A stretch of 64,000 nt of DNA from sequence record DRR723986_1863. One strand, 5' to 3'. The position numbers were made by a program, and so were the translations under genes. Below, piece by piece: positions 21,389 through 54,220 of the stretch (position 1 is the stretch's first letter; every line of letters begins with the position of its first letter). The notes below the pieces were generated by a model, which was not told the DNA's origin, searched no databases, and saw only the letters and a list, made by a program, of their open reading frames with translations.

Positions 21389-21398
21389 GAGAGTTTCG

Positions 21399-23944: not shown

Positions 23945-25507
23945 ATGCCGTACCTGTTCCCCCTGCCCCTTCTTGCGCCGGTGCTGTTGCTGGCTTCAGC
24001 GGCCGTTTCAACAATGTGTCCGGGCCGCCGCCCAGGGCTCTATCCCAAGGCTTCGGAAGCAAGTGCATTTATCGCCCTTGTGCTTGCCCTTGCCGGTCTG
24101 GTGCAGCTTCTGGTCTTGGGAGCAACGGAAGCAACCTTGTTCGAAGGTCCGTTTACGCTTGTTGTGCGGCTCGACCCCATCAGCGTGACGATGACCCTGT
24201 TGGTCGCCTTCATCGGCTGGGTGGTGATGCGTTACTCCCGGACCTACCTCGACGGTGAAGCGCGAGAAGGGGCCTTCCACGGCTTGATGCTCACGGCACT
24301 TGCGGCCGTACTGGTGGTCGTCCAGTCGGGCAGCCTGTTCCTGCTTGTCCTCGGCTTTGCCGGGATCGGCCTCTGCCTGCGCAGGCTTCTGCTGTTTTAC
24401 CCGCAGCGCGCCGCCGCCCAACGAGCCGCCACCAAATTTGCGCTTGTCTGGCATGCAGGTGACATCTCGCTGCTGCTGGCCGCGGGGCTGTTCATGGCAA
24501 GCACCGGCACCGCACAGCTTGGACAGCTTTCTGAAACTGTCGGGCCTGATCTCTCCTTCGCCGAACATCTGGCTGTGGTGTTCCTGGTGCTGGCAGCCGT
24601 GCTGAAAACGGCCGCCTTCCCCCTGCACGGCTGGCTGACGGAAGTCATGGAGGCGCCGACCCCGGTTTCCGCCCTGCTTCATGCAGGCATCATCAATGCC
24701 GGCGGGTTTCTTCTGATCAGGACGGCAGATCTGGTTCAGGCCAGTCCTGGCGCCATGGGCACGCTCGTGGCTCTTGGTGGCCTGACCGCTCTCTTCGGGG
24801 CAGTGGTCATGCTGACCCAAAGCGCGGTGAAGACAGCCCTTGCCTGGTCAACGATTTCCCAGATGGGTTTCATGCTGTTGCAGTGTGGTCTCGGTCTTTG
24901 GCCACTCGCGCTGCTCCATGTGGTCGCGCACTCCCTCTACAAGGCACATGCCTTCCTGTCCTCGGGTGGAGCGGTTCTGGCCGTGGCCAAGCTGCGGCGT
25001 CCCGGCCCGATCGCAATCCCCAGCGTTGCCAACGTGCTCCGGTCCTTCGCGATCGCCTTGTTTCTCTACGCGATAGTCTCCTTCGCCTTCTCGATGATCG
25101 CAGGCCCGAAAACCCCTCAGGCGCTTGCCATTGGGGCAATGCTCATCTTCGGTGTGGCCTATCTGGTGGCGCAAGGTCTTGCAGATGCGGCCCCCGCTGA
25201 ACTGACGTATCGCACCTCGCTGGCCGCAGTCATCGTTGCCTTTGCCTATTTCGGCTTCCAGCAGCTTGCCAACCTTCTGTGGGGCGCAGCTCTGCCGCAG
25301 GCACCTGTCGCCGGCCCCCTCGAATGGGCACTGATCGTCCTGGCAGTGCTTTCCTTCGGCATCGTTGCCGTTGCGCAGACGCTTTTCCCGCTCTGGTCAC
25401 ACCATCCGTCGACCGCCGGCTTGCGCGTTCACATCGCCAACGGCCTTTACCTCAACGCCCTCCTCGACCGCTTTATCGGCGGATACCGGGTTGCAAACTC
25501 CAAGTAA
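23945..25507 (+). CDS. dabB: DAB inorganic carbon pump membrane subunit (NuoL/ND5-like)
   Basis: PLHGWLTEVMEAPTPVSALLHAG, STISQMGFM, HSLYKA; immediately upstream of a DUF2309 gene. Confidence 0.88.
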   Translation: MPYLFPLPLLAPVLLLASAAVSTMCPGRRPGLYPKASEASAFIALVLALAGLVQLLVLGATEATLFEGPFTLVVRLDPISVTMTLLVAFIGWVVMRYSRTYLDGEAREGAFHGLMLTALAAVLVVVQSGSLFLLVLGFAGIGLCLRRLLLFYPQRAAAQRAATKFALVWHAGDISLLLAAGLFMASTGTAQLGQLSETVGPDLSFAEHLAVVFLVLAAVLKTAAFPLHGWLTEVMEAPTPVSALLHAGIINAGGFLLIRTADLVQASPGAMGTLVALGGLTALFGAVVMLTQSAVKTALAWSTISQMGFMLLQCGLGLWPLALLHVVAHSLYKAHAFLSSGGAVLAVAKLRRPGPIAIPSVANVLRSFAIALFLYAIVSFAFSMIAGPKTPQALAIGAMLIFGVAYLVAQGLADAAPAELTYRTSLAAVIVAFAYFGFQQLANLLWGAALPQAPVAGPLEWALIVLAVLSFGIVAVAQTLFPLWSHHPSTAGLRVHIANGLYLNALLDRFIGGYRVANSK

Positions 25508-25522
25508 GACGAGGCACTTCAG

Positions 25523-39453: not shown

Positions 39454-40107
39454 ATGAAGTTTTTTGTCGACACGGCGGATGTCAGCGACATCCGCGACCT
39501 CACAGAACTCGGCCTTATCGATGGTGTTACCACCAACCCGTCCCTGATCCTCAAGTCCGGCCGGGACATCACCGAAGTGACCCGCGAGATCTGCTCCATT
39601 GTCGAAGGTCCGGTTTCGGCCGAAGTGACGGCGACCGAGTTCGAGGCAATGGTGCGGGAAGGCAAGACGCTTGCAAGGATCGCCCCCAACATCTGCATCA
39701 AGCTGCCGCTGACGCTGGATGGTCTAAGAGCCTGCCGTGCACTGACTGCCGAAGGGTTCAAGACCAACGTCACCTTGTGCTTTTCCGCCAATCAGGCGTT
39801 GCTGGCGGCCAAGGCCGGAGCAACCTTCATTTCCCCGTTCATTGGCCGACTGGACGATATGGCCATGGACGGAATGGAGCTGATCCGCGAGATCCGGCAG
39901 ATCTACGACAATTACGGCTTTGAGACCGAAATTCTTGCCGCCTCGATCCGAACGGTCAATCACGTCAAGGAAGCCGCGTTGATCGGCGCCGATGTGGCAA
40001 CCGTGCCGCCGGCAACGATCAAGGCGCTGGTCAAGCACCCGTTGACCGACAAGGGACTGGAGCAGTTCCTTGCGGATTGGGCAAAGACCGGCCAGACCAT
40101 CGCCTGA
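39454..40107 (+). CDS. tal: Transaldolase (short TalC/FSA family)
   Basis: [13 protein letters not shown] (Glu), IKLP, SPFIGR (Phe): transaldolase-type rather than FSA-type residues. Confidence 0.85.
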
Positions 40108-40133
40108 TCGACTGAAGAGTACGTACAAGCAAC

Positions 40134-40165
40134 TTGCCGGTTCCACCCATGGGCGGAGCCGGTAA
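40134..40165 (+). terminator. Hairpin after the ribitol operon
   Basis: TTGCCGGTTCC...GGAGCCGGTAA stem; no clear U-tract. Confidence 0.45.
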
Positions 40166-40233
40166 ATCCACTCGAATTGAACCCGATGACGGTTCGGGCG
40201 TTTCCAATGGAGAGACATCCATTGGAGGATAGT

Positions 40234-40527
40234 ATGCGCCCGCATGAAAATGTCCGGACGATTGCAGCCCTAGCCACCGCACTGACCCTTGTGTGCGGCA
40301 CCGCTCTTGCAGACGACAAGAGTGGCGACTGCCAGGTTGAACCCGGCGCAAAGTCGCAAGACAGGGTACCCACCGATACTGAAGAAACTGCCAGCCTCTC
40401 TGACTGCGACGGTGTTTTGACGCCAGCTCCGGTCGGAGACCGCGAGCTTGTCGAACCTGCCCCCGATGTCGGTGAAACGCCGGTCATCACTCCGGAGGAG
40501 ATCCCGGATCAGCAGCCGGCGGACTGA
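40234..40527 (+). CDS. Small secreted acidic, Pro-rich hypothetical protein
   Basis: RBS GGAGG, signal peptide ending ALA, two Cys in the mature part. Confidence 0.7.
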   Translation: MRPHENVRTIAALATALTLVCGTALADDKSGDCQVEPGAKSQDRVPTDTEETASLSDCDGVLTPAPVGDRELVEPAPDVGETPVITPEEIPDQQPAD

Positions 40528-40554
40528 GGCGACCGCCAGCCAGGTCGATGAGAC

Positions 40555-41238
40555 TTAAGACCGAAGCAAACGCTTGGTGGACCCGACAGCGGTTGCGATC
40601 TGGGAATAATGCGTCTTGCGCTTTTCCGAGTTTCCGGCCGAACGCAGCAGCTTGGTGACGCTCTCGTCGATGGCTTCCGATGCTTCACGGCGAGCCTGCT
40701 CGAGATTGGCCGTGGAAACGGCCCGGTAGGTACGCTGACCCACGGCCGCGCGCGGAGCGCTTCGGTCCTGGTATTTTGAGACAATGCCATCAAGCTTTCG
40801 GGAAAGGCTCCGCAATTCCCGCGCCGCGTCGCGATAGTTTGGCCGGTTTTCAATTGTCGAGGCGGCGCGCCCCAGAACATTCCTCAAACAGTCGAAGCGG
40901 TATTCGGGCCGGATGGAATTGCGGCACTCGTTGCTGCCGTTCTGGATTATCCAGATGACACCGCGGGTGACCCTTTCATCGAGATCATAGGATGCGCTGA
41001 GCTTCGGGTCGCGTTCCTGCCGATCGACATCATAGGAAGGGCCAGACGGTTCGCTGCTCATGGAAGAGCTGTACTGGGCAAGCAGAAGCTCCTCCAGAAC
41101 CGAACCCAATGGATCTGCCGGCGCAAGCGACTGGGCACCCGGCACGGCGACCGCATAAGCAGGCACACTGGCAGCCGTCACGACTTGTCCGGCGAGCACG
41201 GCAACCGCCACACCTGCGCAAAACCTGTTTCCAAACAT
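40555..41238 (-). CDS. Secreted hypothetical protein
   Basis: RBS GGAGG before ATG 41238, signal-like N-terminus, basic helical C-terminal half with two Cys. Confidence 0.72.
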   Translation of the reverse strand: MFGNRFCAGVAVAVLAGQVVTAASVPAYAVAVPGAQSLAPADPLGSVLEELLLAQYSSSMSSEPSGPSYDVDRQERDPKLSASYDLDERVTRGVIWIIQNGSNECRNSIRPEYRFDCLRNVLGRAASTIENRPNYRDAARELRSLSRKLDGIVSKYQDRSAPRAAVGQRTYRAVSTANLEQARREASEAIDESVTKLLRSAGNSEKRKTHYSQIATAVGSTKRLLRS

Positions 41239-41556
41239 GACTTCCTCCAATCAACTATTCAAACACATCGAACAAATCACCAGAGACAACTGATCGAACC
41301 GGGCAGCAATCACGATTGGCGCGACAACTGCTATCGGAAAAGCAGCAAAAACCTGCAATATGACTTAGAAAAACGTCTGCACTGTCTACTTTGAAATCAG
41401 GGATTGATATTTCCCGAAATGTTTCTTTTGATTGTTCTTTTTCAATTTTAACCCCTTGGAATAAAAGAACAAGTCAAAAATTACCTTGCGTCACGCAACA
41501 CGCAACAAAGGCTTGGGAAGGCGGAAATCGATCTCAGCCGGAAAACGCTTTGGCCC

Positions 41557-43092
41557 CTATTCGGAAAGCCCGTAAGCTTTGCGCAGACCTCTCTGGGTCT
41601 GCGGGCCGAACTGGCCGTCGATGGTCCCGGTATAGAAAGAGCGTTCTGAAAGTTTCCGTTGAAGGGAGCGCCGTGTCGTGGCCTTGAACATCTTCGGGTT
41701 TTCCGAGAGCTGGCTCAAAACTTCCTCGTTGCCGGATCTCAAGGCGCGATAAAGATATTCTGCCGCATCGTCCGGTTTCTTGCCATCGACCACGCCGTCA
41801 TCGATCAGAGCTGCGTAATTGAACATTGCTTCCGGGTGCCGCTGATCGGCAGCCTTTCCGAACAGCTCGATTGCCTTTTTCGGATCACGCGCGATCCCCA
41901 GGCCGCCCTGATAATAAAGGAACCCGAGATCGTTGATGGCATCCGCAAAGCCCTCGTCTGCGGACTTGCGAAACAGTTCCAATGCCTTTTCGACATCCTG
42001 TTCGACGCCAATGCCGCGCTCATACATGCGGGCAAGCTCGAACATGGCTTCAGGATCACCCGCTTCCGATGCAGTTTCCAGAAATGCTGCCGCGCGGGAG
42101 GGATCGTAGCGGTCCTCGCTCGGGTTGAGGCGCATGTAGGCAAGGCCTTTAAGCGCCCTGCTGTCGCCCTCCCTTGCCGCCACCTGCAACTGCTCTTCCT
42201 GGCTGACTTCAAGGCGCCCCCAGGCGTTAAGACGGTCTGCCGCGGCAAGCACGTTGACCTCCTGGCTGCCGCCCGCAAGGAAGTAGGGTTTGCCGGACAG
42301 TGAACCGTAGGTGTGCGGCTCCTGCGCGTTGGCGGTGGCTTTCAGCACGGAATCGCGCACCTGCCGGAAGGCAAGGCCTATTTCCAGATCCCTGATCTTC
42401 AAGGTCTGGGCCAGTGCCGATGCAAACGGACTGTTTTCACCTGCCCCATCAAGTGCAACGGCTCCTGCTTCGGCGGCGTAGGCCACCAGCGTGCCGCGTT
42501 CGGGAGAAGGTGCTGCCAGCCCGCGGCCGTAAGCCCCCTGATTTACGGTGAGCGTTTCCTGCCCGCCCACATCGGCAAACGGATCGTTCCGGCAGGAATC
42601 CAGGATCACGATCCTGAGCTGCCGCGCCTTGTCGACCGCTTCCAGAATGTCATCGAGAGAAATCGAGGTATCGGCAACCTGCTGCCGGCTGCCGGCCTTG
42701 GCGTCGGAGGGAACCAGGAAATTGCGCCCGCCGACTTCGATCCCGTGTCCGGCAAAATAGACGAGAGCCACATCCGCCGTTTCCGCCTCGAAGGCGAAAC
42801 GGTCCAGCAGTTCCCGGAACTCCGCAAGCCCGATGTTGAAATGTTCGGACACTTCGAAATTCAGTTCGTTCAAGGTATCCGAAATCAGCTTGCCGTCATT
42901 GGTGGTGTTGCTCAGATCGGGAGCGTTCTCATAGCCCGCAATGCCGACCACAAGCGCCATGCGCCGTTCCGCGAACGGGTCCGTCGCCGCGTGAGCTGAC
43001 AGGCCCGTCAGCACCAGAAACACCACAACAGACCAGACAGCCAATCCGTTGATTTTAAAAGTCTTCAACAGCAGTTCGACCCGGTTTCGCAT
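41557..43092 (-). CDS. Caspase-family (C14) peptidase with Sel1 repeats and C-terminal peptidoglycan-binding domain
   Basis: Signal peptide, YFAGHG (His) and ILDSCRND (Cys) dyad, Sel1 repeats (AMFELARMYERGIGVEQD), YTGTIDGQFGPQT; start uncertain. Confidence 0.88.
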   Translation of the reverse strand: MRNRVELLLKTFKINGLAVWSVVVFLVLTGLSAHAATDPFAERRMALVVGIAGYENAPDLSNTTNDGKLISDTLNELNFEVSEHFNIGLAEFRELLDRFAFEAETADVALVYFAGHGIEVGGRNFLVPSDAKAGSRQQVADTSISLDDILEAVDKARQLRIVILDSCRNDPFADVGGQETLTVNQGAYGRGLAAPSPERGTLVAYAAEAGAVALDGAGENSPFASALAQTLKIRDLEIGLAFRQVRDSVLKATANAQEPHTYGSLSGKPYFLAGGSQEVNVLAAADRLNAWGRLEVSQEEQLQVAAREGDSRALKGLAYMRLNPSEDRYDPSRAAAFLETASEAGDPEAMFELARMYERGIGVEQDVEKALELFRKSADEGFADAINDLGFLYYQGGLGIARDPKKAIELFGKAADQRHPEAMFNYAALIDDGVVDGKKPDDAAEYLYRALRSGNEEVLSQLSENPKMFKATTRRSLQRKLSERSFYTGTIDGQFGPQTQRGLRKAYGLSE

Positions 43093-43392
43093 TGGCGCAA
43101 TCACATGAAAACCCTGTTTCCGGCTTGGTACAAGTCCTGGAAACACCGCTTTCATAATTGGCGGATTACCTTGCGAAAACAACCCCTCTTTTCGCAGCGT
43201 CACCTGACTGCTGCTGTGCCCCTCCGACCGGTACAATCCCAAAAAAGCGGCCGGTCCGCGACTAACGAACCGGCCAAGGCGGACATTGCCTGAAGACCAC
43301 ATCAGACAATCCGGGTTGATCAGCCACCGCATGCAATCCCGCGCAATCTTGCGCTGAAAAGCGGCCGCGGACCGTAAAATGCGTCCAGTTGC

Positions 43393-44733
43393 CTACTCCT
43401 CCCGGAAGGCACGTGACATGCTGTCGACGATCGGCTTGGTCAGATACTGCATGAAGGTTCGCTCGGCCGTCTGGATCATGATTTCCGCGGGCATGCCCGG
43501 GGTCGGAACGAAGTTAAGCACCCTTGTCAGTTCGCCCGGTGAGATATCGATGCGAGTGACGTAAACCTCACGCATGATGCCCGTGCTGTTGTCGGTGATT
43601 GCATCTGCAGACACATATTGCACTTCGCCTTCCAGCACCGGAGTGGTGCGTTGATTGAGGGCGGACAGGCGAACAGTGGCCTGCTGGCCGATATGGACGC
43701 TGTCGATATCGGTTCGCGAAATCAGTGCCTCGATGATCAGCGGTGCGTCGGACGGCAGAATCTCGACAATCGTCTTGCCGCTTTCGATAACCCCACCGGC
43801 TGTGTGGTAGTGCATGCGTACGATGGTGCCCGAAACCGGTGCCTGAATGACGGCACGTTCAAGAACGTTGCGCGCCTTGCGGGACTGCTCTCTTGCCGCA
43901 TCCAGCTCGGCCTCGATCGATTGCAGGTCATCAAGCACCTTCTCGTTATAGGCAGCCCGTGTCTGCTTGACCTGTTCCTGGTGTTGCAGGACCTGGGCAT
44001 TGGCTTCCTGCATGGACGATGCCAGCCTTCCGATCTGCCCTTCCGCTTCTGCGATCGCTCTTTCCAGTGCATTCAGGGTCGGCTTCAGAAGAAGGCCTTT
44101 TTCGAAGAGAAGTTTCTTGCCCGTGTGTTCTTCCTCCAAGATCGCAAGCTGCCTGATCATGGCATCATGCTGTTCACGGTAGCCGTCGCGGCGGTGCTGA
44201 AGGGATTCGATCGTGCTCTCCAGAATCCTGATATCGCTCGTCAGCTTGGCCTGGGATCCGATGAAACTTAGCTTCTGGCCGGCGATGATGGTGGCAATTT
44301 CCTCATCGTCCTTCAGGTCCAGCAATGTTTGCGGGAATTCCACCTCCTTCAGCCAGAGATATTCGGCGCGCAGACGGGCGTTGATCGCTTCCAGCCGCGC
44401 CAGCTTGAGACCCAGCTGTCGCTCGTTTGCGGATGCGACGGTTTCGTCGAGACGAACAATCGGATCGCCTTTTTGAACGCGCTCGCCCTCCTGCACCAGG
44501 ATCTCCTTCACGATCCCGCCTTCGTAGTGCTGAATCTGCTTGTTCTGTCCGGTTGCGACAAAGGTTCCGCTTGAAATCACGGCGGCTGCCAACGGCGCGG
44601 TAAAGGACCAGGCGGCAAAGCCTCCTATGAAGAAGACCAGCATGAAAACGCCGATCAGCGTGTGCCAGAAAATCGATCTCGGCACTGCCGAATACCAGTC
44701 CATCGGTTCGTGATGTGTCAGAGCGTTGCTCAT
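43393..44733 (-). CDS. Type I secretion HlyD/PrtE-family adaptor
   Basis: N-terminal TM helix, IQHYEGGIVKEILV, APVSGTI, PGMPAE, YLTKPIVDSMSRAFRE. Confidence 0.93.
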   Translation of the reverse strand: MSNALTHHEPMDWYSAVPRSIFWHTLIGVFMLVFFIGGFAAWSFTAPLAAAVISSGTFVATGQNKQIQHYEGGIVKEILVQEGERVQKGDPIVRLDETVASANERQLGLKLARLEAINARLRAEYLWLKEVEFPQTLLDLKDDEEIATIIAGQKLSFIGSQAKLTSDIRILESTIESLQHRRDGYREQHDAMIRQLAILEEEHTGKKLLFEKGLLLKPTLNALERAIAEAEGQIGRLASSMQEANAQVLQHQEQVKQTRAAYNEKVLDDLQSIEAELDAAREQSRKARNVLERAVIQAPVSGTIVRMHYHTAGGVIESGKTIVEILPSDAPLIIEALISRTDIDSVHIGQQATVRLSALNQRTTPVLEGEVQYVSADAITDNSTGIMREVYVTRIDISPGELTRVLNFVPTPGMPAEIMIQTAERTFMQYLTKPIVDSMSRAFREE

Positions 44734-44775
44734 CTTTTCCCCCTGGCTTGAGCCGTCCCTGGCGGCTGCCAACGC

Positions 44776-46737
44776 TTATCCTTGTTGCTGAACCGCTCTT
44801 TGTTTCTTCCGGTCGGCAAGGAGTTCCAGCACCTCGTTGCGGAAGCCGAACATGCTGATGGAGCCGTCGGCCAGAACGAGGATCCGGTCGACACATTTCA
44901 GCAGGGATGGCTTTTGCGTGATCGCGACGACGGTGATGCCTTCGGCCTTGGCATGTGCCATTGCCCGTGCAAGTGCCTCGTCGCCATTGGTGTCCAGATT
45001 TGAGTTGGGTTCGTCCAGAACGACGAAACGTGGATTACCGAAGAACGCCCTGGCAAGCGCGATACGCTGCTTCTGACCGCCTGACAGCGGCGCACCGTCA
45101 GCCGCGACGACCGTTTCGTAGCCGTGGGCCAATTCGGAAATCATGGCGTGCACGTCGGCCAGACAGGCAGCTTCGTAGATCTGCTCGTCCGAAGCATCTT
45201 CGCGCATGCGGCCGATGTTCTGCTTGATCGTGCCCGGGAAGAGCTGAACGTCCTGCGGCAGATAACCGATGTTCTCACCCAGCTGCCGCTGGTTCCAGTT
45301 GCGCAGGTCCATCAGGTCCAGACGCACCGCGCCCGATGTCGGCAGGATGGACCCCACCAGCATCTTGCCGAGTGTGGTTTTGCCGGCTCCCGAGTTGCCG
45401 ATGATCGCAAGAGAGTCCCCGGCTTTCAGCGAAAAGGTGATGCTGTTGAGCACGACCCGCTTGGTCCCCTGGGGCACGTAAAGCAGGCGTTCGACATCAA
45501 GCCGGCCTTGCGGCTTGGGCAGAACGAGACGTTCGGAATTGAGCGGCGAGGATTTCAGCAGTGTCGAGATCCGGCCATAGGAATTGCGCGACAGCAGATA
45601 CTGGTTCCAGCCTTCGATCGCGCCCTCGATGGGCGACAGAGCCCGGCCGCCGATAATGGAGGCGGCAATCACCATGCCCCCGGTCAGTTCACCCTGGATG
45701 GCAAGGAATGACCCCCACCCGAGCATCGCCACCTGCGTCAGAAGCCGGACCGCCTTGGTGATGGAGGCCGAAACAATGTTTCTGTCCTGCGCACTGACCT
45801 GCGCGCGCAGCGAAGCAGCCGTATCGCGCCCCCACAGGTGAACCGCTTCCGGGATCATGGCCAGTGCGTTGATGATCTGCGAATTCCTGGACATGGCATC
45901 CAGATGCAGGTTCGCCTTGCTCTGGTTCTGGTTGGCATCGCTGAAATGCCGGGACGTGATCTTCTGGTTGATCACCGCGATCACGAGCAGGATCACACAG
46001 GTGCCACCGACGATCATCCCGAGGTGCGGATGAATGAGGTAGATCGCGACCAGGAAAAGCGGCGCGAAGGGACCGTCCAGAAATGCCATCATGGTGCCGG
46101 ACACCAGAAAACCCCGCAATTGCTGCAGGTCGTTCAGGATCTGGTACTCCTTGCCGTTGCTGTTGAGCGAAGCTCGTGCGGCGGCTGCGAGGATGGGTGA
46201 ACCCAGTTGCGATGCGAGTTCGACCGCCGTGCGCATAAGAATGAAGCGGCGGATGGCATCGAAGGCTGCCTGCAGCAGGACCGCCCCGACGATCACGCCT
46301 GTCAGCATGACCAGCGTGTCCAGCGAGCGGCTGGTCAGGACCCGGTCCGAGATCTGGAACAGATAGACCGGAATTGACAGCACAAGCACATTGATGACGC
46401 AGGAAAACATCAGCACGATGAGTAGATTGCGCCGAACGGCGGCGACGCCGTTTTCGAGTGCCTTGGAAAGATCGGGCGGTGTCGTCCGTTGGTGGAACTC
46501 GGGCTTTTCAGCCTTGGCTTTGCCTGTGCCTGTGCCAGTGCCTGTCCGGGCGGACTTGCCGCCGTCCGCCGGTTTCGCTCTTGCGTCTCCCGACTTCAGG
46601 GTTGGTCCGCCTGCAACGGCTGCTGCCTCTGCGCCGACAAGTCGTGCATCACCCTTTTTCGCATCGGGGCCTAGCACCTGCGGCTCACCCGCCCGGCTCG
46701 TCCGCTGCCCATCGGCAACATCATATGAAATGGTCAT
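44776..46737 (-). CDS. Type I secretion ABC transporter (PrtD/AprD-like, no C39 domain)
   Basis: DRVLTSRS, GNSGAGKT, GYLPQDVQLF, LSGGQKQRIALARA, LDEPNSNLD; low-complexity N-terminal extension. Confidence 0.93.
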   Translation of the reverse strand: MTISYDVADGQRTSRAGEPQVLGPDAKKGDARLVGAEAAAVAGGPTLKSGDARAKPADGGKSARTGTGTGTGKAKAEKPEFHQRTTPPDLSKALENGVAAVRRNLLIVLMFSCVINVLVLSIPVYLFQISDRVLTSRSLDTLVMLTGVIVGAVLLQAAFDAIRRFILMRTAVELASQLGSPILAAAARASLNSNGKEYQILNDLQQLRGFLVSGTMMAFLDGPFAPLFLVAIYLIHPHLGMIVGGTCVILLVIAVINQKITSRHFSDANQNQSKANLHLDAMSRNSQIINALAMIPEAVHLWGRDTAASLRAQVSAQDRNIVSASITKAVRLLTQVAMLGWGSFLAIQGELTGGMVIAASIIGGRALSPIEGAIEGWNQYLLSRNSYGRISTLLKSSPLNSERLVLPKPQGRLDVERLLYVPQGTKRVVLNSITFSLKAGDSLAIIGNSGAGKTTLGKMLVGSILPTSGAVRLDLMDLRNWNQRQLGENIGYLPQDVQLFPGTIKQNIGRMREDASDEQIYEAACLADVHAMISELAHGYETVVAADGAPLSGGQKQRIALARAFFGNPRFVVLDEPNSNLDTNGDEALARAMAHAKAEGITVVAITQKPSLLKCVDRILVLADGSISMFGFRNEVLELLADRKKQRAVQQQG

Positions 46738-46749
46738 GAGCTGCCTCCC

Positions 46750-48774
46750 CTAAGCGACCATTGTCGCCATCGGATCGACACAGACCTCGTCCGGCACCTG
46801 GTTCAGGTTGACGGTTTCAAGATCGTTGTCACCATTGGTCAGCATGCCGTCGGCCAGGAAGACAACGGCCTCCGACGCAAGACCCGCCCCGCCGTGACCA
46901 GGTTGCTCGACATCTGCGGTCAGGATCTCCGCCTGGTAAAGCAAAGCTTCCGAATAGGTGTCGCCACCGACGCGAATAACATTGTCCACGCTGGCTTCCT
47001 GGATCACCGCGGCATTGTAGAGAAGGTTTGAATCGCCGTTGATGCTGGTGCCTTCGCTTGAGACATCGACCCCAAGCGTGGCGATGCTGTCGCTGTCGCC
47101 CAGGATATTGACCTGTTCGAGGTAATTGATGTCGTAGACATCACCGGAGATATAAAGAACGTTCAGCTGGTTGAAAGGCGAGGTTTCCCCGCTGAAGAGC
47201 CCGGCCAGGAAGTCATCGCCGAGATCCTCTTCACCTGCCGTTGCGAGCCGGTTCGCGCTTGCCGGATCCAGGTCGACGACGGAACTGTTGTAGTTGGAAA
47301 CGATATAGGCCTCGTTCCAGAGCAGATTGTCGATCTGCCCGTCAGGCATCGGCATGGAAGCGTCTTGTGTACCTTCGGCAATGACCTGATCGAAATTGAC
47401 CATGACGTTGGTCTGGCTGATCACATTGGCCGAGTAATAGTCGCCTCCGATCAGGATCAGATCGAAAAAGGTGCTCAGCTCCGTAAGGTTGAGAGCATTT
47501 GTCAGAATATTGCCACCGGACATGATCGTCGTGCCCGAGCCGTCTTCCTGGTAGACGATGGTGTCGTTGTCGACCAGGTAGTTCTTCTGGGTCAGCCAGT
47601 TCACGAAGGTCATGTCACCGTCGTGGAAGGTGACATCCCAGAGAGAATGATTACCGACCGGAGCAACATCCATGGGCAGATCCGAACCGGTGTTCATGAT
47701 CGATGCGATGTTGTAGCTGCCGGTACTCGGATCCGTCGCCCACTCGCCAAGACCCGCCAGATGCGGCGCTGCCAGAACATTTGTCTGGCTGATAATGTCG
47801 AGATCGTAATAATCGCCGGCCACAGCTATGGTCGCGGCCTTGCCCCAGACGTCCGCCAGAATGGCCTGATTGATCAGTGTGTTGTTGCCGGCACTGATTT
47901 GCAGCGAAGCGGAGGTTCCGGCGGTGTCCACCAGCGAAGCCAACTCGCCTGAGGCGCTTTGCGGTCCCTCGAGCACCACGTCATCGGAGTTCGCTTCGGC
48001 GTCATCGTCCGGAGCACGACCCCTCAAATGCTTGATGACTTCATCAAGACGGGCGGCTTCCTCGACAACGATACCGTTCTGATAGAGCTGCCCGGTGTCA
48101 TCTCCGGTTGCCAGAACCTGTTGCCCGACACCGGGAGCGCCGGTTTGCATGGTTTGGGCTGTTTCCGTCCAGGCTGCGACGGTCGCGCTCAGATTGCCAG
48201 CCGGATTGTCTGCTTCCGTAAAGCTGAACCTGCCGGTGATCCCGGCAGCCTCCAGCGCATCGAGGAAGGAGATGAGTGATGGTGCTTCGTAATCGAAATG
48301 ATAGTGGAGACCCGTGTTGGACAGATAGTCGTTGTCCTCCAGCACGTTTTCGGACCGGGACACAACGGCGAAGCTGTTGGGCAGCACTTCGTGCTGGAAC
48401 GTTATGAAGCGGACACCGCCTGTCAGCGCGATGGTGTAGGGATTGAAAGTCCCCTCAACCGGCGGCGGCATCAGATGTGCCCGCATGCCAATGCCATCCC
48501 ACTCATAAAAGTTCAGGGCGGCGGGAACGTCGTCGTAGTAGCTGTAACCATCGAATTCGTAATGGATATTCGGATTGAGGTCGAGCAGCTGATAGTCCGG
48601 CCAGACTGTCGGCAGCGCCTCCATCGTCTCACCTTGCTCTGCCTGTTCGGCAGCAAGCTGTGCCGCGCGGAATTCAAGATACTCAAGGCGGGCGCGGGCC
48701 TCCTCGAGTGACATGGAAAAGCTTCCTACAAAATGCGAAATCGCTTCACGCGTAAGGTCATCATAAAAAAACAT
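46750..48774 (-). CDS. Large acidic protein with about five internal repeats, probable T1SS substrate
   Basis: 674-aa ORF directly upstream of the ABC gene, no signal peptide, recurring QxNxL / NxLxNxAxI / GGDxY motifs. Confidence 0.8.
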   Translation of the reverse strand: MFFYDDLTREAISHFVGSFSMSLEEARARLEYLEFRAAQLAAEQAEQGETMEALPTVWPDYQLLDLNPNIHYEFDGYSYYDDVPAALNFYEWDGIGMRAHLMPPPVEGTFNPYTIALTGGVRFITFQHEVLPNSFAVVSRSENVLEDNDYLSNTGLHYHFDYEAPSLISFLDALEAAGITGRFSFTEADNPAGNLSATVAAWTETAQTMQTGAPGVGQQVLATGDDTGQLYQNGIVVEEAARLDEVIKHLRGRAPDDDAEANSDDVVLEGPQSASGELASLVDTAGTSASLQISAGNNTLINQAILADVWGKAATIAVAGDYYDLDIISQTNVLAAPHLAGLGEWATDPSTGSYNIASIMNTGSDLPMDVAPVGNHSLWDVTFHDGDMTFVNWLTQKNYLVDNDTIVYQEDGSGTTIMSGGNILTNALNLTELSTFFDLILIGGDYYSANVISQTNVMVNFDQVIAEGTQDASMPMPDGQIDNLLWNEAYIVSNYNSSVVDLDPASANRLATAGEEDLGDDFLAGLFSGETSPFNQLNVLYISGDVYDINYLEQVNILGDSDSIATLGVDVSSEGTSINGDSNLLYNAAVIQEASVDNVIRVGGDTYSEALLYQAEILTADVEQPGHGGAGLASEAVVFLADGMLTNGDNDLETVNLNQVPDEVCVDPMATMVA

Positions 48775-48849
48775 GTCAGCCCCCTAATCTGAATGAAGGG
48801 TCGTTTTCGCGGTCAAACTCGCGCGAATCTAATAACGAGAGGCCGCGTT

Positions 48850-48885
48850 CAGCAGGCGCGGAGCAAGTGAGCTCCGCGCCTGCTG
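48850..48885. terminator. Perfect 15-bp intercistronic hairpin (mRNA stabiliser or attenuator)
   Basis: CAGCAGGCGCGGAGC-AAGTGA-GCTCCGCGCCTGCTG; no U-tract on the coding (minus) strand. Confidence 0.7.
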
Positions 48886-48926
48886 CTGTTTTCCGGAATT
48901 GAAAATCAATTCAGGAACAAACCGGA

Positions 48927-49679
48927 TCAGCTCAGGGAGCCGAGATCTTCACCGGTCATCAGGCTGTCCATGTTGCCGCCGACAATGGTCATGTCGACAG
49001 AGTTGTTCAGGATGTTTTCGCCCTGCACAAGCGTGTTGGTGAATGCCGATGCATCGTTGGAAGCGGATGCTTCAGCCGCATTCATGCCCTGGACGAGCGC
49101 ATCGTCATCAGCAATGACGCTGACGCTGCCGGAACCGAGGTCATCGATTTCCAGATTGCCTTCCAGGTCGACCGACATGCCATGGAAACCGGCATGACCG
49201 AACCAGGTGCCGACATGGCCACCGAATGCCTGCATGTCAGCATCGACATATGCCGACCCGCTGGAGCCGCCTGCCGAAATACCGTCATCGGTTTCGGCAT
49301 CGCCACCCTTGGCACTCAGGGTCTGGTTGAAGCCGGCGTTGTTGGTTGCCGTCGTACCGTTGGCCCAGTCGTTGTCTTCCAGCTGGTTGCTGTTGTTGAG
49401 CACGACACCGGCATCATTGCCGCCACCATTGAGGGCTTCGTTCAAAATGTCTTCAACGGTGATGTCGTCGCCCGGGCTGTAGTCGATGCCGCCGTTGACG
49501 CTCACGAGCATCTCGTCGACTTCAGCGCATTCTTCCAGGTCGATGTCCACGACATCGTCGTCGTCATAAACAAAACCTTCTTCGAAGTTCATCACGACTT
49601 CGGCCTTGTTGATGATCTTCGAGTCATCGACTGCATCGAAATCAGAGTAATTGAATTGAGTTCCACGCTTACCAGACAT
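48927..49679 (-). CDS. Acidic Asp/Asn/Gly-rich protein B, probable T1SS substrate
   Basis: RBS AAGGA, no signal peptide, paralog of 49817-50542. Confidence 0.82.
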   Translation of the reverse strand: MSGKRGTQFNYSDFDAVDDSKIINKAEVVMNFEEGFVYDDDDVVDIDLEECAEVDEMLVSVNGGIDYSPGDDITVEDILNEALNGGGNDAGVVLNNSNQLEDNDWANGTTATNNAGFNQTLSAKGGDAETDDGISAGGSSGSAYVDADMQAFGGHVGTWFGHAGFHGMSVDLEGNLEIDDLGSGSVSVIADDDALVQGMNAAEASASNDASAFTNTLVQGENILNNSVDMTIVGGNMDSLMTGEDLGSLS

Positions 49680-49816
49680 GATAATAGTCCTTGTTCATCG
49701 CGGCGAGCCAGGTCTCGCAAGACCGGCGTTCACACCGCATTCTGACTTGGAAACGGGCGCAGCTGGCGTTTCGGAAACAGGTTCGAAACAGAAAACCGCG
49801 GCGCCGATCGAACATC

Positions 49817-50542
49817 TTAGAGCTCGTCCTCACCAACGCTGTCGGTGTAGAGATCACCGCCGACAATCGTCGTGTCGACCGAGTTGTTGAGAATGTTCGC
49901 ACCCTGCACCAGCTCGTTGACGAACGCTTCGGTTGCGTTGGCGGCATTGGCAGCAGCCATCACTTCACCAATCACCGTCGCATCATCAAGGGCATCCACG
50001 GTCATGGACGACCCACCGAAAGCCAGACCGTCATCAGCTTCCGCCGAACCGCCGTTGGCAGTCAGCTTCTGCGTGAAGGACCCTTCATTGGCGACAAAGG
50101 TGTCTTTTGCCCAGTCATTGTCTTCCAGCTGGTTGCTGTTGTTGATTGCAATGCCGGTATCGTTCCCAAGGCCGTTCAGCGCATCATTGAGGACGTCTTC
50201 GACCTTGATATCGTCGCCCGGGTCGAAGTCGATATTGCCTTTCGCAATCAGAATGTCCTCGACACTCGCATGGTCGCCGATGTCCAGGTCAATGTTGTCG
50301 ACGTCCGAAGGACCGTTCTCGAAATCCACATTGATGACAGGATCGAAATCACTGTCGACATACTTGAACACCTGGTTGTTCACATCCTGGGTGTTGTCGT
50401 CGTCCGAGTATTCCCACTCGTAGCTCTTCGAATTGTCGATGTTTATTTCGTGATTATAGTTGGTGTTGTACTCGCTAGAATAAGTCGGATTGAACGACTT
50501 ATCGATGTTCAGCTCGTTTTTATGCCAAACGTATTCGCTCAT
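49817..50542 (-). CDS. Acidic Asp/Asn-rich protein A, probable T1SS substrate
   Basis: RBS GAGGA, no signal peptide, no Arg or Cys, paralog of 48927-49679. Confidence 0.82.
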   Translation of the reverse strand: MSEYVWHKNELNIDKSFNPTYSSEYNTNYNHEINIDNSKSYEWEYSDDDNTQDVNNQVFKYVDSDFDPVINVDFENGPSDVDNIDLDIGDHASVEDILIAKGNIDFDPGDDIKVEDVLNDALNGLGNDTGIAINNSNQLEDNDWAKDTFVANEGSFTQKLTANGGSAEADDGLAFGGSSMTVDALDDATVIGEVMAAANAANATEAFVNELVQGANILNNSVDTTIVGGDLYTDSVGEDEL

Positions 50543-51272
50543 GGTTCTGTCCTCAGATCGGACAGCTCGGCAGATCGTCTTCTATCGATTTGCATAGGGC
50601 TGTCGTGGTTAAGAGGAGCGTTACCGCCCCAGATCAAATGGAAAATGGCAAAAACAACCACCTCAGCTAATCAAAATAGATTTAGCTGCTCCATTTACTC
50701 TTCGGCTGGAAGTCAAATTTGAGGATTGGGATCCACAAACCGAGGATTTACACAAATACGAGAATCTCCCAGCCGATGAAAACAATGACAGAACAGGGAG
50801 ATTTCAATAAGCTGGAAATCTTAACTAAACATTTACCATTCAAGTTTCGCGAATATCTAGCGACATAGGTAAATCACGCGAGGTCAAAAAAAGTATTTAA
50901 TTGCAATATCTTGAAGCAAAATCTGATCCGCGACTAAATCGAATTATTAATATAACCTAAGGTAAGTTTGTTATATACAAGTTATGGGTGAGGAGAAATT
51001 CAGACTAGGGGGTCACTGCACAAATCCCTGTTAATACTGCGATTTGGACGGCATGTTCATTTTCCGACAGCCACCCATTTCCCGCACCTATCCTTGGTCT
51101 GAACAAACAAGATAAGAAATTTTATTATTTTAAGAACCGCATGGCTAATGCCGACGGCAGAATAAGCCGGATGAATATTTACAAAAACGCTTCTCCCAGG
51201 CCCTGTTTCTGGCAATTGCAAGTGAAAGAGAGTCAAAATTAAATTTTATCTTAGTTTGTAGGGGTGACAGTA
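50543..51272. promoter_or_regulatory. Long AT-rich divergent control region
   Basis: About 730 nt with no convincing CDS; contains TTAA-N7-TTTACCAT (50821-50839), ACCTAAGGT (50955-50963) and TTGTTATATACAA (50968-50980). Confidence 0.65.
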
Positions 51273-51992
51273 ATGACTAGCGTAAATTACGAGAATAAAG
51301 GTTCAATCTATTATATTGGAGCGTCCGAAAAGTTTCCGAAGGAACTGGAAGGAGTAATCGACCGGGAAATAGAAGATGGACGTTTTATCCGTATCACTCA
51401 GAAAATCGATCTTTATCGCTCGGAGCGCCGTGGGGAATTTTCAAAACGCCTTTTCCTGATTGACGAAGGCTTCAGCGCGGAGCGCAAGGAAGCTATTGCC
51501 TGCCTGCGGAAAAACTTCCCCGAAGCAAACCTCTGCATGCTGATCAATGACGATCTGTCGTTCCCCTCTATCATCAGCGATTATTTCCAGGAAGGCCTGA
51601 TCAAGAGCGTGCTGCCGATGAACCTTCGGATCGATCTCTGGCTAGGCGCTATCCGTCTCATGCTCAACGGCGGCCATTATCTGCCGGCTGATGCCATCAA
51701 GTACATGGGAATGGAAAGGCCTTACGGCGCAGCCCCGGCCATGCATCAGCGCAGGCACCGCAGCCGTACCAGGAACCGCTTCGGCAAGCTGACGAAACGG
51801 GAAACCGAAGTTCTGTGCCTCATCTCAGAGGGATATCAGAACAAGAACATCGCCGAAAAATTGTCCCTGTCGGAGCACACCATCAAGCTCCATATCCATC
51901 ACATCATTTCAAAGCTCGGCGTTTCAAACAGAACGGAAGCAGCCGCGATCTACATTCAGACGGAACAACGACCACCCAATCTAGAGGCCTGA
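51273..51992 (+). CDS. LuxR/NarL-type regulator with degenerate receiver domain
   Basis: LTKRETEVL...GYQNKNIAEKLSLSEHTIKLHIHHIISKLGVSNRTEAA HTH; start may be GTG 51264. Confidence 0.88.
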   Translation: MTSVNYENKGSIYYIGASEKFPKELEGVIDREIEDGRFIRITQKIDLYRSERRGEFSKRLFLIDEGFSAERKEAIACLRKNFPEANLCMLINDDLSFPSIISDYFQEGLIKSVLPMNLRIDLWLGAIRLMLNGGHYLPADAIKYMGMERPYGAAPAMHQRRHRSRTRNRFGKLTKRETEVLCLISEGYQNKNIAEKLSLSEHTIKLHIHHIISKLGVSNRTEAAAIYIQTEQRPPNLEA

Positions 51993-51994
51993 AG

Positions 51995-52504
51995 ATGAGC
52001 GCGGCAGATGCGCCCACAATGGCGGACGAATTCCAGACGTTTCTCGCCCTCATGGGCCGGCTGAACTATACGTGGACCAACACGGAGAGCTTGCTGATCC
52101 ACATGATCGCAGGCCTAGCCGGCGTCACCAAGGAAGTCGCGACGGTGATCTTCCTGACCCTCAACACGTCGCGTGCCCGGATTGATCTGGTCGAACGGCT
52201 GGCCAAGCTCGATACGCAGAAACCGGACTTGAGGGAAGAGGTGCTGAGCCTCACACGGGACATGCACAAGACCTTGAAATTGAAAAACAAATACAATCAC
52301 TGCATCTATTCGTTCGACAACGAGGGGCGCAATGCCTCAACCATTTTGATGCGCATCAGCGACCAGAAACACAAGATCGAATACGGCAAGTCCAGCCCGA
52401 TCAATTCCCGGGAAATCACGCTCGTCAGGGAAACGATCCAGAAGACACAGACGCTGAACAAGGCGCTCTGGGAGTTCTTCAAGCAGCGCAAGTTTCCGGT
52501 GTGA
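51995..52504 (+). CDS. Hypothetical helical protein with HEPN-like pattern
   Basis: Starts 2 nt after the luxR stop; N-terminal helix with ESLL, KNKYNH motif. Confidence 0.75.
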   Translation: MSAADAPTMADEFQTFLALMGRLNYTWTNTESLLIHMIAGLAGVTKEVATVIFLTLNTSRARIDLVERLAKLDTQKPDLREEVLSLTRDMHKTLKLKNKYNHCIYSFDNEGRNASTILMRISDQKHKIEYGKSSPINSREITLVRETIQKTQTLNKALWEFFKQRKFPV

Positions 52505-52532
52505 GATCCTCCCGCGCTGCACGCAGCCTCAA

Positions 52533-52622
52533 CAAAAAAGAGGCCGGATCGGTAAACCGAACCGGCCTTTCAGGGGAGGTAACAGGATGTTTGAGCAGGT
52601 ACGGATCGCTCTGATCCGGCTG
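52533..52622 (-). ncRNA. Candidate sRNA (5' hairpin, anti-SD CCUCCCC linker, intrinsic terminator)
   Basis: CGGATC/GATCCG stem, CAUCCUGUUACCUCCCC linker, AGGCCGG..CCGGCCU stem plus U-tract; upstream TTGGAC-N16-CAGAGT. Confidence 0.5.
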
Positions 52623-52726
52623 ACTGAACTCTGCCCTGGAGCGTGCCGCGTCCAACTAAAAAGATCTTGCGTCGAAATCCCCCAATTCAGGCAGTGAGAA
52701 GCGATTCCGATGAAACGCGACAAGTT

Positions 52727-54220
52727 CTAGCCGATCCTTGCGGCAATGCTTTTGGTCTTGCAGTAGCTCTTGAGACCCTCGAGACCTTTTTCGCGGCCGA
52801 AACCGGATTTCTTGTTGCCACCGAACGGCACCTCGATCCCGCCGGCGAAATACTCGTTGATGTAGATCTGGCCGGCATCGATCTTGCGCGCGAGCTGATG
52901 GGCTTTTGCGAAATTCGACGTGTAGATGCCTGCGACCAGGCCGTACTGGCAATCGTTGGCAAGTGCCAGGGCATGATCGGCATCATCAGCCACCTGCACC
53001 GTCAGCACCGGCCCGAAGATTTCCTCCTGCGCCAACTCGTCACTCGCAGAAACGCTATCGACGATTGTCGGCTCATAGAACCAGCCCTTGCCGGTTTTCG
53101 GGTCGGCGGCTATGGCGCCACCCGTCACGATATCAGCTCCCCGAGCCCTTGCGCGGTCGACAAAACCGGCAACCTTTGCAAGATGTCCCGCAGAATTGAC
53201 CGGCCCGACATCCGGGTTACCAAGACCGTGCCCGAGTGTCAGCGATTTTGTGCGTTTCACCAGTTCCGCAACGAAGTCCGCGTGAATGTTCTTCTCGATC
53301 ACGAGACGAGATCCAGCGGAACAGATCTGGCCGGCATTCTCGTAGATCGCACCGAGAACACCGGATAGCGCCTGTTCCCGGTCACAATCGCCAAGCACCA
53401 CCACGGGCGATTTACCACCAAGCTCCAGCACCACGCGGGTAATCTCGTCGGCTGCCGCCTTCATCACCGCCTTGCCCGTCTGGACCGAACCGGTGAACGT
53501 GATGTGGTCGACATCCGGATGGGATGTCAGTGGAGCCCCGGTTTCGGCGCCGGTTCCGGTCACGACATTGCACACGCCTGCCGGCAATCCGGCATCATGC
53601 AGGATCTTCGCGAGCAGCAACGCGGTGAACGGCGTTTGTTCGGCAGGCTTGGCCACAACCGTGCAGCCAGCTGCAAGCGCCGGCGCAAATCCGCGCGCAG
53701 CGGTGGAGATCGGAAAGTTCCACGGAATGATGTGGGCCGTGACCCCGACCGGCTCGTGAATGGCGTAACCGACATAATTTGGCCCAAGGGGAAAGCTGTC
53801 TCCCTGCAGCTTGTCGCAAGCGCCCGCGTAATACTCGAACGTACGTGCAGCACCGCGCACATCGCCTTGAGCTTCCTGCAGTGCCTTGCCGCTGTCCAGC
53901 GTTTCGGCAACGGCCAGAAGATCGAGATTTTCCAGGATAAGCCTGGACGCTTGCAGAAGGATGCGAGACCGCTCCACCGGCGCCATGTCTCGCCAGACCG
54001 TCTCAAAAGCAACCTTTGACGACTTTACCGCCTGATCGACATCTTCGGCGGTTCCCGCCGTGAAGCGGGCGAAGGCTTCACCCCGGCCCGGATCGAAACT
54101 TTCCATGGTGCGGTTATGGGACGGCTGCGTGAAGCTGCCGTCGATGAAATGGCCGAGGGGCAACGCCTTCAGCGTGTCCGTAGCCTGATATTCCGCGATG
54201 AGTTCGCTTGCTCCGGACAT
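52727..54220 (-). CDS. Aldehyde dehydrogenase
   Basis: IIPWNFP, FTGS, LELGGKSP, GQICSAG, EEIFGP; ATG 54220. Confidence 0.92.
   Translation of the reverse strand: MSGASELIAEYQATDTLKALPLGHFIDGSFTQPSHNRTMESFDPGRGEAFARFTAGTAEDVDQAVKSSKVAFETVWRDMAPVERSRILLQASRLILENLDLLAVAETLDSGKALQEAQGDVRGAARTFEYYAGACDKLQGDSFPLGPNYVGYAIHEPVGVTAHIIPWNFPISTAARGFAPALAAGCTVVAKPAEQTPFTALLLAKILHDAGLPAGVCNVVTGTGAETGAPLTSHPDVDHITFTGSVQTGKAVMKAAADEITRVVLELGGKSPVVVLGDCDREQALSGVLGAIYENAGQICSAGSRLVIEKNIHADFVAELVKRTKSLTLGHGLGNPDVGPVNSAGHLAKVAGFVDRARARGADIVTGGAIAADPKTGKGWFYEPTIVDSVSASDELAQEEIFGPVLTVQVADDADHALALANDCQYGLVAGIYTSNFAKAHQLARKIDAGQIYINEYFAGGIEVPFGGNKKSGFGREKGLEGLKSYCKTKSIAARIG

Follow-up and report, generated by a model that had tools for sequence, protein, structure and literature searches.

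Odd cargo is common among type I systems. The RTX/PrtD-HlyD systems, whose substrates include proteases, lipases, NodO and RsaA, are among the known systems closest to the locus described here. In a 64,000-nucleotide stretch of DNA from sequence record DRR723986_1863 (the whole stretch is called the window below), positions 43,393 to 52,504 hold a cassette in which a minus-strand operon encodes two cargo proteins (A and B), a large protein (L), an ATP-binding cassette (ABC) exporter and an HlyD adaptor, while a divergent pair of genes encodes a LuxR/FixJ-family regulator (LuxR) and a protein of 169 amino acids (aa) that we call X169. As for RTX/PrtD substrates, a peptidase-less PrtD-type ABC exporter and an HlyD adaptor are encoded right after the cargo, and the cargo is acidic, nearly Cys-free, free of a signal peptide and best conserved at its C-terminus. 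Unlike RTX substrates, A, B and L have no GGxGxDxUx repeats and the cargo domains lie outside Pfam and NCBIfam; unlike RTX systems, the cassette also comprises another large conserved protein, a pair of regulators of its own and an RNA element in the 5' untranslated region (UTR). The best explanation as a whole, to which we give a probability of about 0.45, is that this six-gene cassette exports acidic cargo that would form surface material and would be controlled at three levels.

In curli, a LuxR/FixJ-family regulator gene lies divergent across a long AT-rich intergenic region, and the divergent luxR gene of the cassette, set across an AT-rich spacer, resembles this layout. Curli (csgBAC/csgDEFG) and Fap further share with the cassette Asn/Gln-rich repetitive proteins, secreted in curli and Fap and probably secreted here, and, in the lineage of the window, two paralogous subunit-like genes. 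Unlike curli and Fap, however, the cassette has no Curlin_rpt or Fap match, no Sec signal and no CsgG- or FapF-like channel gene; its export would be of type I, and 75 of the 80 related loci analysed lack the pair of paralogues.

Type I export of aggregating or matrix proteins has precedent in CdzC/D (PMC5380434) and EbfG (PMC11345509), according to the parts of these two papers that were available. In concept, these are the cases nearest to the cassette. The Cdz system of Caulobacter crescentus (cdzABCDI) is, like the cassette, an alphaproteobacterial type I system with two paralogous small cargo genes and divergent operons, and its products form very stable aggregates that remain on the surface of the producing cell (available part of PMC5380434). 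It differs in that the Cdz cargo is 84-86 aa long, hydrophobic and N-terminally processed and comes with a membrane immunity protein (same part of PMC5380434), whereas the cargo here spans 241-1632 aa and is strongly acidic, no immunity gene is present (the cassette encodes no membrane protein besides ABC and HlyD), and L, LuxR and X169 are added. EbfG of Synechococcus elongatus comprises small matrix proteins, some of them amyloid-prone, with type I-like export involving an HlyD homologue and tight regulation, but its export uses the cysteine peptidase PteB (both from the available part of PMC11345509), whereas the ABC exporter of the cassette has no peptidase domain. No relation in sequence or architecture was seen between EbfG or CdzC/D and the cargo of the cassette.

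A PrtD-class exporter in a recurrent gene set

The exporter is a PrtD-class type I system with an HlyD adaptor, and both assignments of the initial annotation, which had been made from the letters and their open reading frames (ORFs), pass curated cut-offs. The ABC exporter (44776-46737, minus strand, 653 aa) scores 707 bits against TIGR01842, the PrtD-type model (cut-off 510), over residues 98-638 and stays below the cut-offs of the LssB and HlyB subfamily models; Pfam finds ABC_tran and ABC_membrane in it, and no peptidase family (N-terminal C39) is among its Pfam matches. The adaptor HlyD (43393-44772, minus strand, 459 aa) scores 390 bits against TIGR01843 (cut-off 209) and has a single N-terminal hydrophobic segment. 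The maximum 19-residue hydropathy of the two proteins is 2.2-2.6. Ahead of the matched region, ABC carries a low-complexity N-terminal extension of 97 aa, which in 72 loci measures 53-730 aa (median 153) and has no conserved sequence; the idea that it forms a consistently basic electrostatic dock was dropped, since it is net positive in only 41 of the 72. The cassette itself encodes no TolC-like channel. A single gene of the OEP family is present in the window (21399-22904), as part of an RND efflux operon (17007-22904, plus strand; adaptor, AcrB-like pump and outer-membrane factor) that stands beside a TetR gene and is unrelated to the cassette.

The five operon ORFs and that of LuxR were found at the positions and on the strands given by the initial annotation, and a plausible ribosome-binding site precedes each gene. 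The gaps between the operon genes are 137 nucleotides (nt) for A-B, 152 nt for B-L, 12 nt for L-ABC and 3 nt for ABC-adaptor. A scan for related loci, with one genome per species and start codons set heuristically, gave 225 pattern matches and 97 confirmed loci, 80 of which were analysed. These are all from Alphaproteobacteria, among them many marine and soil bacteria, with carriers in the Rhodobacterales (including Roseovarius, Sulfitobacter, Ruegeria, Tritonibacter and Litoreibacter) and in the Hyphomicrobiales (including Roseibium, Phyllobacterium, Mesorhizobium, Devosia and Hoeflea). When the ORFs of these loci were searched with the window proteins, one layout recurred, in which the X169-LuxR pair diverges from the genes for cargo, L, ABC and HlyD. 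The complete six-part set is present in 66 of the 80 loci, and the remaining 14 are cut by contig or locus ends. HlyD is found in every related locus long enough to include it, an L orthologue adjoins the ABC gene in all loci that are long enough, LuxR is a conserved partner across the related loci and X169 is conserved in 74 of them; no additional neighbour gene is common to more than 8 of the 80. In Pseudorhodobacter the LuxR-X169 pair is not divergent and sits downstream of HlyD on the same strand (locus L064, 9169-10466; also L038 and L045), so that the regulator pair travels with the cassette even where the order is rearranged.

With the full gene set found again in 66 of the 80 loci, its recurrence exceeds chance and the cassette is a unit. 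The initial annotation had named a lack of linkage between homologues and type I genes as a result that would speak against it; the homologues are clearly linked, and the conservation of this linkage across the 80 loci supports well, by gene context, that cargo of the A/B kind leaves the cell by type I export; that A and B themselves are exported by this system is very probable. The cassette is a real and widespread variant of type I secretion, apparently without earlier description: no description of it was found in the full-text literature, consisting mostly of freely readable papers without supplements, and an exoproteome table listing its proteins could exist. The available part of PMC4511512 treats other RTX genes, not this cassette.

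The probable cargo proteins A and B and the large protein L

A (49817-50542, minus strand, 241 aa) is the minimal form of its family, and B (48927-49679, minus strand, 250 aa) is its paralogue, with 45% identity over 194 columns (E 1e-40) and an insertion of ~45 aa inside the conserved domain; L (46750-48774, minus strand) has 674 aa and four repeats. The initial annotation described all three as very acidic and without Sec signals, and this is borne out by net charges of -44 (A), -44 (B) and -86 (L), Lys plus Arg contents of 2.0-3.3%, 0-1 Cys, and the absence from all three of a hydrophobic N-terminus or membrane segment (maximum 19-residue hydropathy ≤1.17). Its description of them as Asn/Gly-rich fits A (Asn 12.4%) and B (Gly 13.2%) but hardly L (Asn 6.7%, Gly 8.3%). 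That no canonical RTX array is present was likewise confirmed, since GGxGxD has 0 matches in the three proteins and a degenerate G-x-G-N-D occurs once in A and once in B; among the cargo orthologues, loose GGxGx[DN] matches number 0-17 and do not form regular arrays.

The three proteins were also taken by the initial annotation to belong to uncharacterised families, and the searches of Pfam, NCBIfam and PDB sequences agree. A and B have no Pfam match at E≤0.1 and no NCBIfam family, and the A-family profile has 0 matches to PDB sequences at E≤10. Among 1.84 billion representative proteins, 69 relatives of A were found at E≤1e-3, and 19 of 20 of them tested carry no Pfam family; 13 cargo orthologues have no Pfam match either, and their NCBIfam matches are compositional. 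The latter include matches of three long cargo orthologues to staphylococcal adhesin Ser-Asp repeats, which lie far below cut-off and were rejected. For L, no Pfam or NCBIfam family was found, with a sub-threshold DUF match only; five L orthologues have no Pfam match and compositional NCBIfam matches only, and the L-family profile has 0 matches to PDB sequences at E≤10. A word-indexed protein search gave at least 11 matches with L alone and at least 8 with the L profile, numbers that greatly understate the family. Neighbours of L in the ESM Atlas fall in Pfam-less clusters that are auto-named 'type I secretion protein', a naming that reflects context-based annotation and not knowledge of function.

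The cargo is conserved in three parts, a short polar N-terminus, a first half-domain (A ~78-175) and the C-terminal ~80 residues (A ~160-241). Between the half-domains lies an insertion of 0 residues in A, ~45 in B and 200-1300 Gly/Ala/Asp-rich residues in other genomes, and many orthologues carry Gln-rich and Asn-Gly repeat tracts ahead of the domain. The 85 cargo-like ORFs and fragments in the related loci are all acidic (net -4 to -364) and have 0-1 Cys. Relatives of A of ~1000-1600 aa (P0013, P0014, P0017, P0019-P0021, P0024 and P0025) contain 7-12 tandem copies of a ~120-aa C-terminal module and end in the same C-terminal motif, and these tandem copies show that modules can stand side by side. 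In this respect they are like the LapA/RTX adhesin class, from which the cassette differs in that A and B are single-module proteins and no LapG/LapD-type genes are present. A conserved C-terminal module encoded next to its own exporter is the typical look of a C-terminal type I signal domain. Because the cargo combines such a module with a hypervariable remainder and an adjoining exporter, the C-terminal ~80 residues most likely carry an uncleaved type I secretion signal.

Apart from the window, only loci L001-L005 have two paralogous cargo genes; loci beyond the Roseibium/Stappia group have one, which in two further loci is split in a draft assembly. With a single cargo gene in 75 of the 80 loci, the major/minor subunit pair that the initial annotation had proposed by analogy with curli is specific to one lineage and is not general. 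An AlphaFold2 model of A from a 40-sequence alignment is of low confidence throughout (predicted local distance difference test score, pLDDT, 47.9; predicted template-modelling score, pTM, 0.17), which would fit a protein whose disorder ends when cations or partners are encountered and would fit equally a fold invisible to the method; it lends no support to a β-solenoid or an amyloid-like solenoid.

The long insertions often carry GxxxGxxxG-like tracts, and such small-hydrophobic tracts are present in many orthologous cargo proteins (0-12 per protein). Together with the SDS- and heat-stable surface aggregates that the type I-exported Cdz proteins form in an alphaproteobacterium (available part of PMC5380434), they could point to a Cdz-like contact-dependent antagonism, in which surface aggregates would damage neighbours through glycine-zipper segments. 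Yet A has 0 such tracts and B has 1, the cargo is strongly acidic and not hydrophobic, the cassette contains no membrane immunity gene and has no further conserved neighbour, and CdzC/D are proteins of only 86 and 84 aa with processed N-terminal signals (same part of PMC5380434); we consider such antagonism very improbable and keep to the reading of the cargo as a surface material.

In L, an N-terminal helix that contains an invariant H-F-x-G is followed by a variable region, by four β-rich repeats of ~40-50 aa and by a conserved extreme C-terminus, of which the last eight residues are strikingly conserved. The repeats, at about 290-345, 412-470, 476-510 plus 530-572, and 576-625, are supported at 92-98% probability by profile-profile comparison of segments from a 38-sequence alignment; the third is interrupted by a helical insert, and N, G, Q and D positions are invariant in them. 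A BLAST comparison of L with itself gave the identity match only and missed the repeats. AlphaFold2, run with 9 sequences, gave a model of L (pLDDT 52.9) in which a long helix at the N-terminus precedes a β-rich region, of moderate confidence, at 290-617. A Foldseek search of this model against PDB returned nothing at E≤0.001, with a best E of 0.77 and TM below 0.1, a result that is uninterpretable because the model is poor overall.

The β-rich, repetitive build of L would also be in keeping with a reading of the products as soluble exoproteins, with L a secreted enzyme of the β-helix type, for example a glycan-acting one, and A/B soluble Ca2+-binding accessory or decoy proteins. The top Foldseek rows are mostly β-helix proteins (pectate lyases, polygalacturonases, RbmB, an antifreeze protein), and type I systems commonly export enzymes, glycanases and epimerases included. 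All of these Foldseek matches are insignificant, however, at E 0.77 or worse and TM below 0.1; no enzyme family was found for L or five of its orthologues; and the invariant N, G, Q and D stand at equivalent positions of the repeats, which is a structural pattern and not a catalytic one. Soluble exoproteins of this kind are therefore an unlikely account, and we continue to favour a surface material to which L would contribute.

How L might contribute depends in part on its likeness to the cargo. The initial annotation saw one sequence unit common to A, B and L; paralogy does hold for A and B, whereas the likeness to L is confined to short motifs. BLASTP comparisons of A or B with L give E 0.04-0.08, and the whole A-family and L-family profiles match over 34 columns at 21.6% probability, while the A C-terminus matches the second L repeat at 87.9% (reversed control 0.6%). 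A second motif common to A and L is compositional, as it also scores 76% in reverse. A complex prediction for L(285-674) with A(70-241) scored 0.00 in both runs and, having been made without controls or family alignments, carries no weight either way. The nucleator or anchor role that the initial annotation gave to L draws on the short shared motif and gene order, and it is not supported in that specific form. That L is exported as well we put at slightly better than even.

Control region, leader stem-loop and cargo-L hairpin

The A and LuxR genes are separated by a divergent control region of 721 bp (50543-51263, assigned to neither strand) with 40-43% GC against about 51-62% around it, in keeping with the divergent luxR gene across an AT-rich spacer noted in the initial annotation. 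In 73 loci the spacer has a median length of 671 bp and a GC content of 0.47, compared with 0.58 for the locus, and an alignment of five Roseibium/Stappia species shows strongly conserved blocks in it. A highly conserved, near-palindromic block of ~50 nt at about 50930-50985 could be an operator or promoter. At 50615-50630 (minus strand) there is also a small hairpin, its loop 4 nt long, in which one of the five species has a compensatory change.

Directly before the ribosome-binding site of A, the 5'-UTR contains a stem-loop (50556-50607, minus strand) in which a 4-nt spacer separates the outer from the inner helix and the loop, rich in purines, has ~14 nt. The inner helix is also predicted by RNAalifold, and each of the six pairs in that prediction has compensatory changes. 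In a 47-sequence seed alignment, 74.1% of the cells of the two-helix structure are paired, compared with 59.3% after shuffling and at most 44% when the structure is slid along the alignment, and the covariation score is 0.473 versus 0.218, a value that 0 of 500 shuffles reached. A covariance model of the element, R1, gave 81 hits at E≤1 in 1.52 Mb, one of them the sole hit in the window, 77 immediately upstream of cargo in related loci and the remaining 3 weak and stray; among the loci hit, 32 had not contributed to the seed. R1 missed seed locus L004, with which the element is present in 78 of the 80 loci. In the alignment fitted by R1 the inner helix is 94.4% paired, with compensatory changes in all 5 pairs, and the outer helix 62%, an understated column count because the helix register shifts between taxa. 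For 73 of the 81 hits, 13-26 nt separate the 3' end of the stem-loop from the start codon that follows. A search with the 4227 covariance models of Rfam (E≤1, 40000-54000) found nothing at 50556-50607 and returned two unrelated sub-threshold hits. A switch that sequesters the ribosome-binding site was considered and dropped: minimum-free-energy folds pair the site in 30 of 73 cases against a control fraction of 0.31. Because sequestration is not enriched, we propose that a factor binds the stem-loop, which would then not act as a simple switch.

The first gene of the regulator pair, LuxR (51264-51992, plus strand, 242 aa counted from GTG), has an alternative start at ATG 51273 with a better ribosome-binding site. 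It matches PF00196, the GerE helix-turn-helix, at its C-terminus (residues 176-228, E 1.1e-18), and residues 4-179 gave 0 Pfam families at E≤10, neither a receiver nor an autoinducer-binding domain among them; judged by eye, the N-terminal ~170 aa could be a degenerate receiver. X169 (51995-52504, plus strand, 169 aa, basic) starts 3 nt after the LuxR stop and is translationally coupled to it. The initial annotation had placed here a longer, 229-aa GTG frame that overlaps the LuxR gene; the real gene is most likely the 169-aa frame. X169 is the best-conserved protein of the cassette, with 42-76% identity and 21 invariant columns, many of them basic, across 32 aligned orthologues that span orders.

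HEPN proteins are defined by a helical domain with a conserved R-x(4-6)-H motif, and the initial annotation had called the X169 gene HEPN-like, which it may be. The X169 family does have an R-N-x-Y-N-H-like consensus, in which N98 and H102 are invariant and the R is 60-90% conserved, but the window copy has a K in place of the R, and no credible match was found in Pfam, NCBIfam or PADLOC, nor any recognised DNA-binding family. The idea of a defence-system protein was dropped for lack of a PADLOC match. In the ESM Atlas, the closest cluster to which a family is assigned is that of MtlR, whose score of 0.76 is at chance level and makes it a weak lead; the best matches of the X169 profile to PDB sequences are C-terminal helices of flagellin (E 0.035-0.3, five related entries), below significance. 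Just after X169, at 52527-52597 on the minus strand, the suhB/mmgR small-RNA family scores 22.1 bits (gathering score 41, E 0.75). The stem-loop and X169 are co-conserved, and from this alone we tentatively suggest that X169 acts on the stem-loop, a proposal that we regard as rather doubtful.

A second RNA structure occupies the cargo-L spacer and takes the form, in the window, of a strong GC-rich hairpin of 15 pairs between B and L (48850-48885, minus strand). All 52 cargo-L spacers (the window and 51 loci) contain a local hairpin of ≤-20 kcal/mol, with a median of -34.0 compared with -21.2 kcal/mol in dinucleotide shuffles; 39 of the 52 reach ≤-30 kcal/mol, versus 36 of 520 shuffles, and 45 are lower than all ten of their own shuffles. 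The hairpin sequences are unrelated between taxa. Other type I operons have attenuators that separate the substrate gene from the transporter genes, and the cargo-L hairpin is probably an attenuator or a stabiliser of the mRNA end; by analogy, it should make the cargo more abundant than L and the exporter.

This position of L, behind a conserved hairpin and 12 nt ahead of ABC, where it is probably expressed at the level of the transporter, would also suit an export accessory that is not itself cargo, namely a cytoplasmic adaptor or plug that feeds aggregation-prone cargo to ABC, with the N-terminal extension of ABC as a possible dock. The unusual extension and the far higher conservation of L than of cargo agree with such a role. 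L nevertheless looks like a type I substrate, given its net charge of -86, one Cys, lack of a membrane segment and conserved extreme C-terminus, and two strongly acidic proteins would be expected to repel each other at low cytoplasmic Ca2+; we judge a purely accessory role to be distinctly unlikely. The same hairpin speaks against a regulated surface lattice in which L would be exported in the manner of an S-layer protein, with A/B as linkers to the cell envelope. The S-layer protein RsaA of Caulobacter is exported by a type I system, and L is acidic, nearly Cys-free, of about 70 kDa and β-rich, has a distinct N-terminal region and adjoins a PrtD-type exporter gene. S-layers need the highest expression, however, while L stands behind an attenuating hairpin in a cassette under dedicated and apparently tight control, and the L profile has no similarity to solved S-layer proteins among PDB sequences; a lattice of this kind is highly improbable. 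In the reading that we prefer, of an exported acidic cargo forming surface material, L would instead be a low-abundance partner.

The flanks of the cassette in the window consist of ordinary metabolic and transport genes. Directly downstream of HlyD, a 591-aa protein (41557-43332, minus strand) combines a caspase (Peptidase_C14), Sel1 repeats and a C-terminal peptidoglycan-binding domain; its gene probably lies outside the system, because it recurs beside the cassette only in the closest relatives (L001-L003). A 343-aa frame antisense over A (49691-50722, plus strand) has a third-position GC content of 0.55, against 0.69 in A, and no relatives of it turned up; we take it as spurious. A DabA/DabB-type pair of inorganic carbon transporter genes (23945-27901, plus strand) is unrelated to the cassette.

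Proposed mechanism and its meaning

In our model, the PrtD-type ABC and HlyD, presumably with a TolC-like channel encoded elsewhere, would export the products of the genes upstream of them in one step. The cargo would be one or, in the lineage of the window, two hyper-acidic and almost Cys-free proteins, which charge repulsion may keep unfolded at low cytoplasmic Ca2+, and L would probably be exported too. Outside, in Ca2+/Mg2+-rich water, the proteins may condense, at the cell surface or close to it, to form a coat, a matrix or an adhesive material, with L as a template, anchor or export helper of low abundance. Transcription would be controlled by the dedicated LuxR-family regulator acting from the long AT-rich divergent region; at the cargo leader, the stem-loop abutting the ribosome-binding site may be read by X169 as a non-DNA-binding partner; and at the level of the operon, the hairpin after the cargo gene would lower the expression of L and the exporter relative to the cargo. 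That the products self-assemble into a polymer, coat or matrix is a possibility that we hold with considerable doubt. What the data establish are the identities of the genes, their conserved association, the composition of the proteins and the two RNA structures; export, the place of the secretion signal, assembly triggered by Ca2+, the role of L and the action of X169 on the RNA are inferences.

Several points weigh against this model. The case for export is drawn from gene context, and the data are computational throughout. The A/B-like C-termini are acidic and G-[DE]-D-rich, whereas L ends in hydrophobic residues, so that one type of signal cannot explain both. A, B and L are free of canonical RTX nonapeptides, and the orthologues have few loose matches, so that Ca2+ binding is hypothetical. 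The model of L is mediocre overall (pLDDT 52.9) and has no PDB match, A has no confident predicted fold, and no amyloid-like solenoid has been demonstrated. The hairpin puts L, together with the transporter genes, on the low-expression side, a position that fits an apparatus role as well as a minor structural one. At the cargo leader, a simple sequestration switch is not supported, and searches of Pfam, PADLOC and PDB sequences revealed no recognisable RNA-binding family for X169.

A bolder version of the model would make the cassette the source of a new extracellular material. Silk- or prion-like low-complexity proteins would be exported unfolded, with their end domain docked on or templated by L, and would set with Ca2+ into a coat or fibre, while an X169-stem-loop switch would couple synthesis to export capacity and thereby keep an aggregation-prone protein from building up in the cytoplasm. 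We regard this version as a long shot.

Whatever its products do, the cassette spans two orders and at least 97 species-level genomes with no assigned function, and four protein families and one RNA motif of it are absent from the curated libraries searched. Its cargo forms a natural length series from 241 aa in the window to >1600 aa, and the minimal form in the window therefore offers an easy entry point for biochemistry. Through its leader stem-loop, the cassette may prove to illustrate how a type I substrate is controlled after transcription. Among the major colonisers of the surfaces of algae, particles and roots are rhizobia and bacteria of the Roseobacter group, and some of the exoproteomes of these bacteria are dominated by type I substrates. 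If it is true that the products of the cassette assemble outside the cell, they would constitute a third, unrelated case of a type I-exported matrix or aggregate beside Cdz and EbfG.

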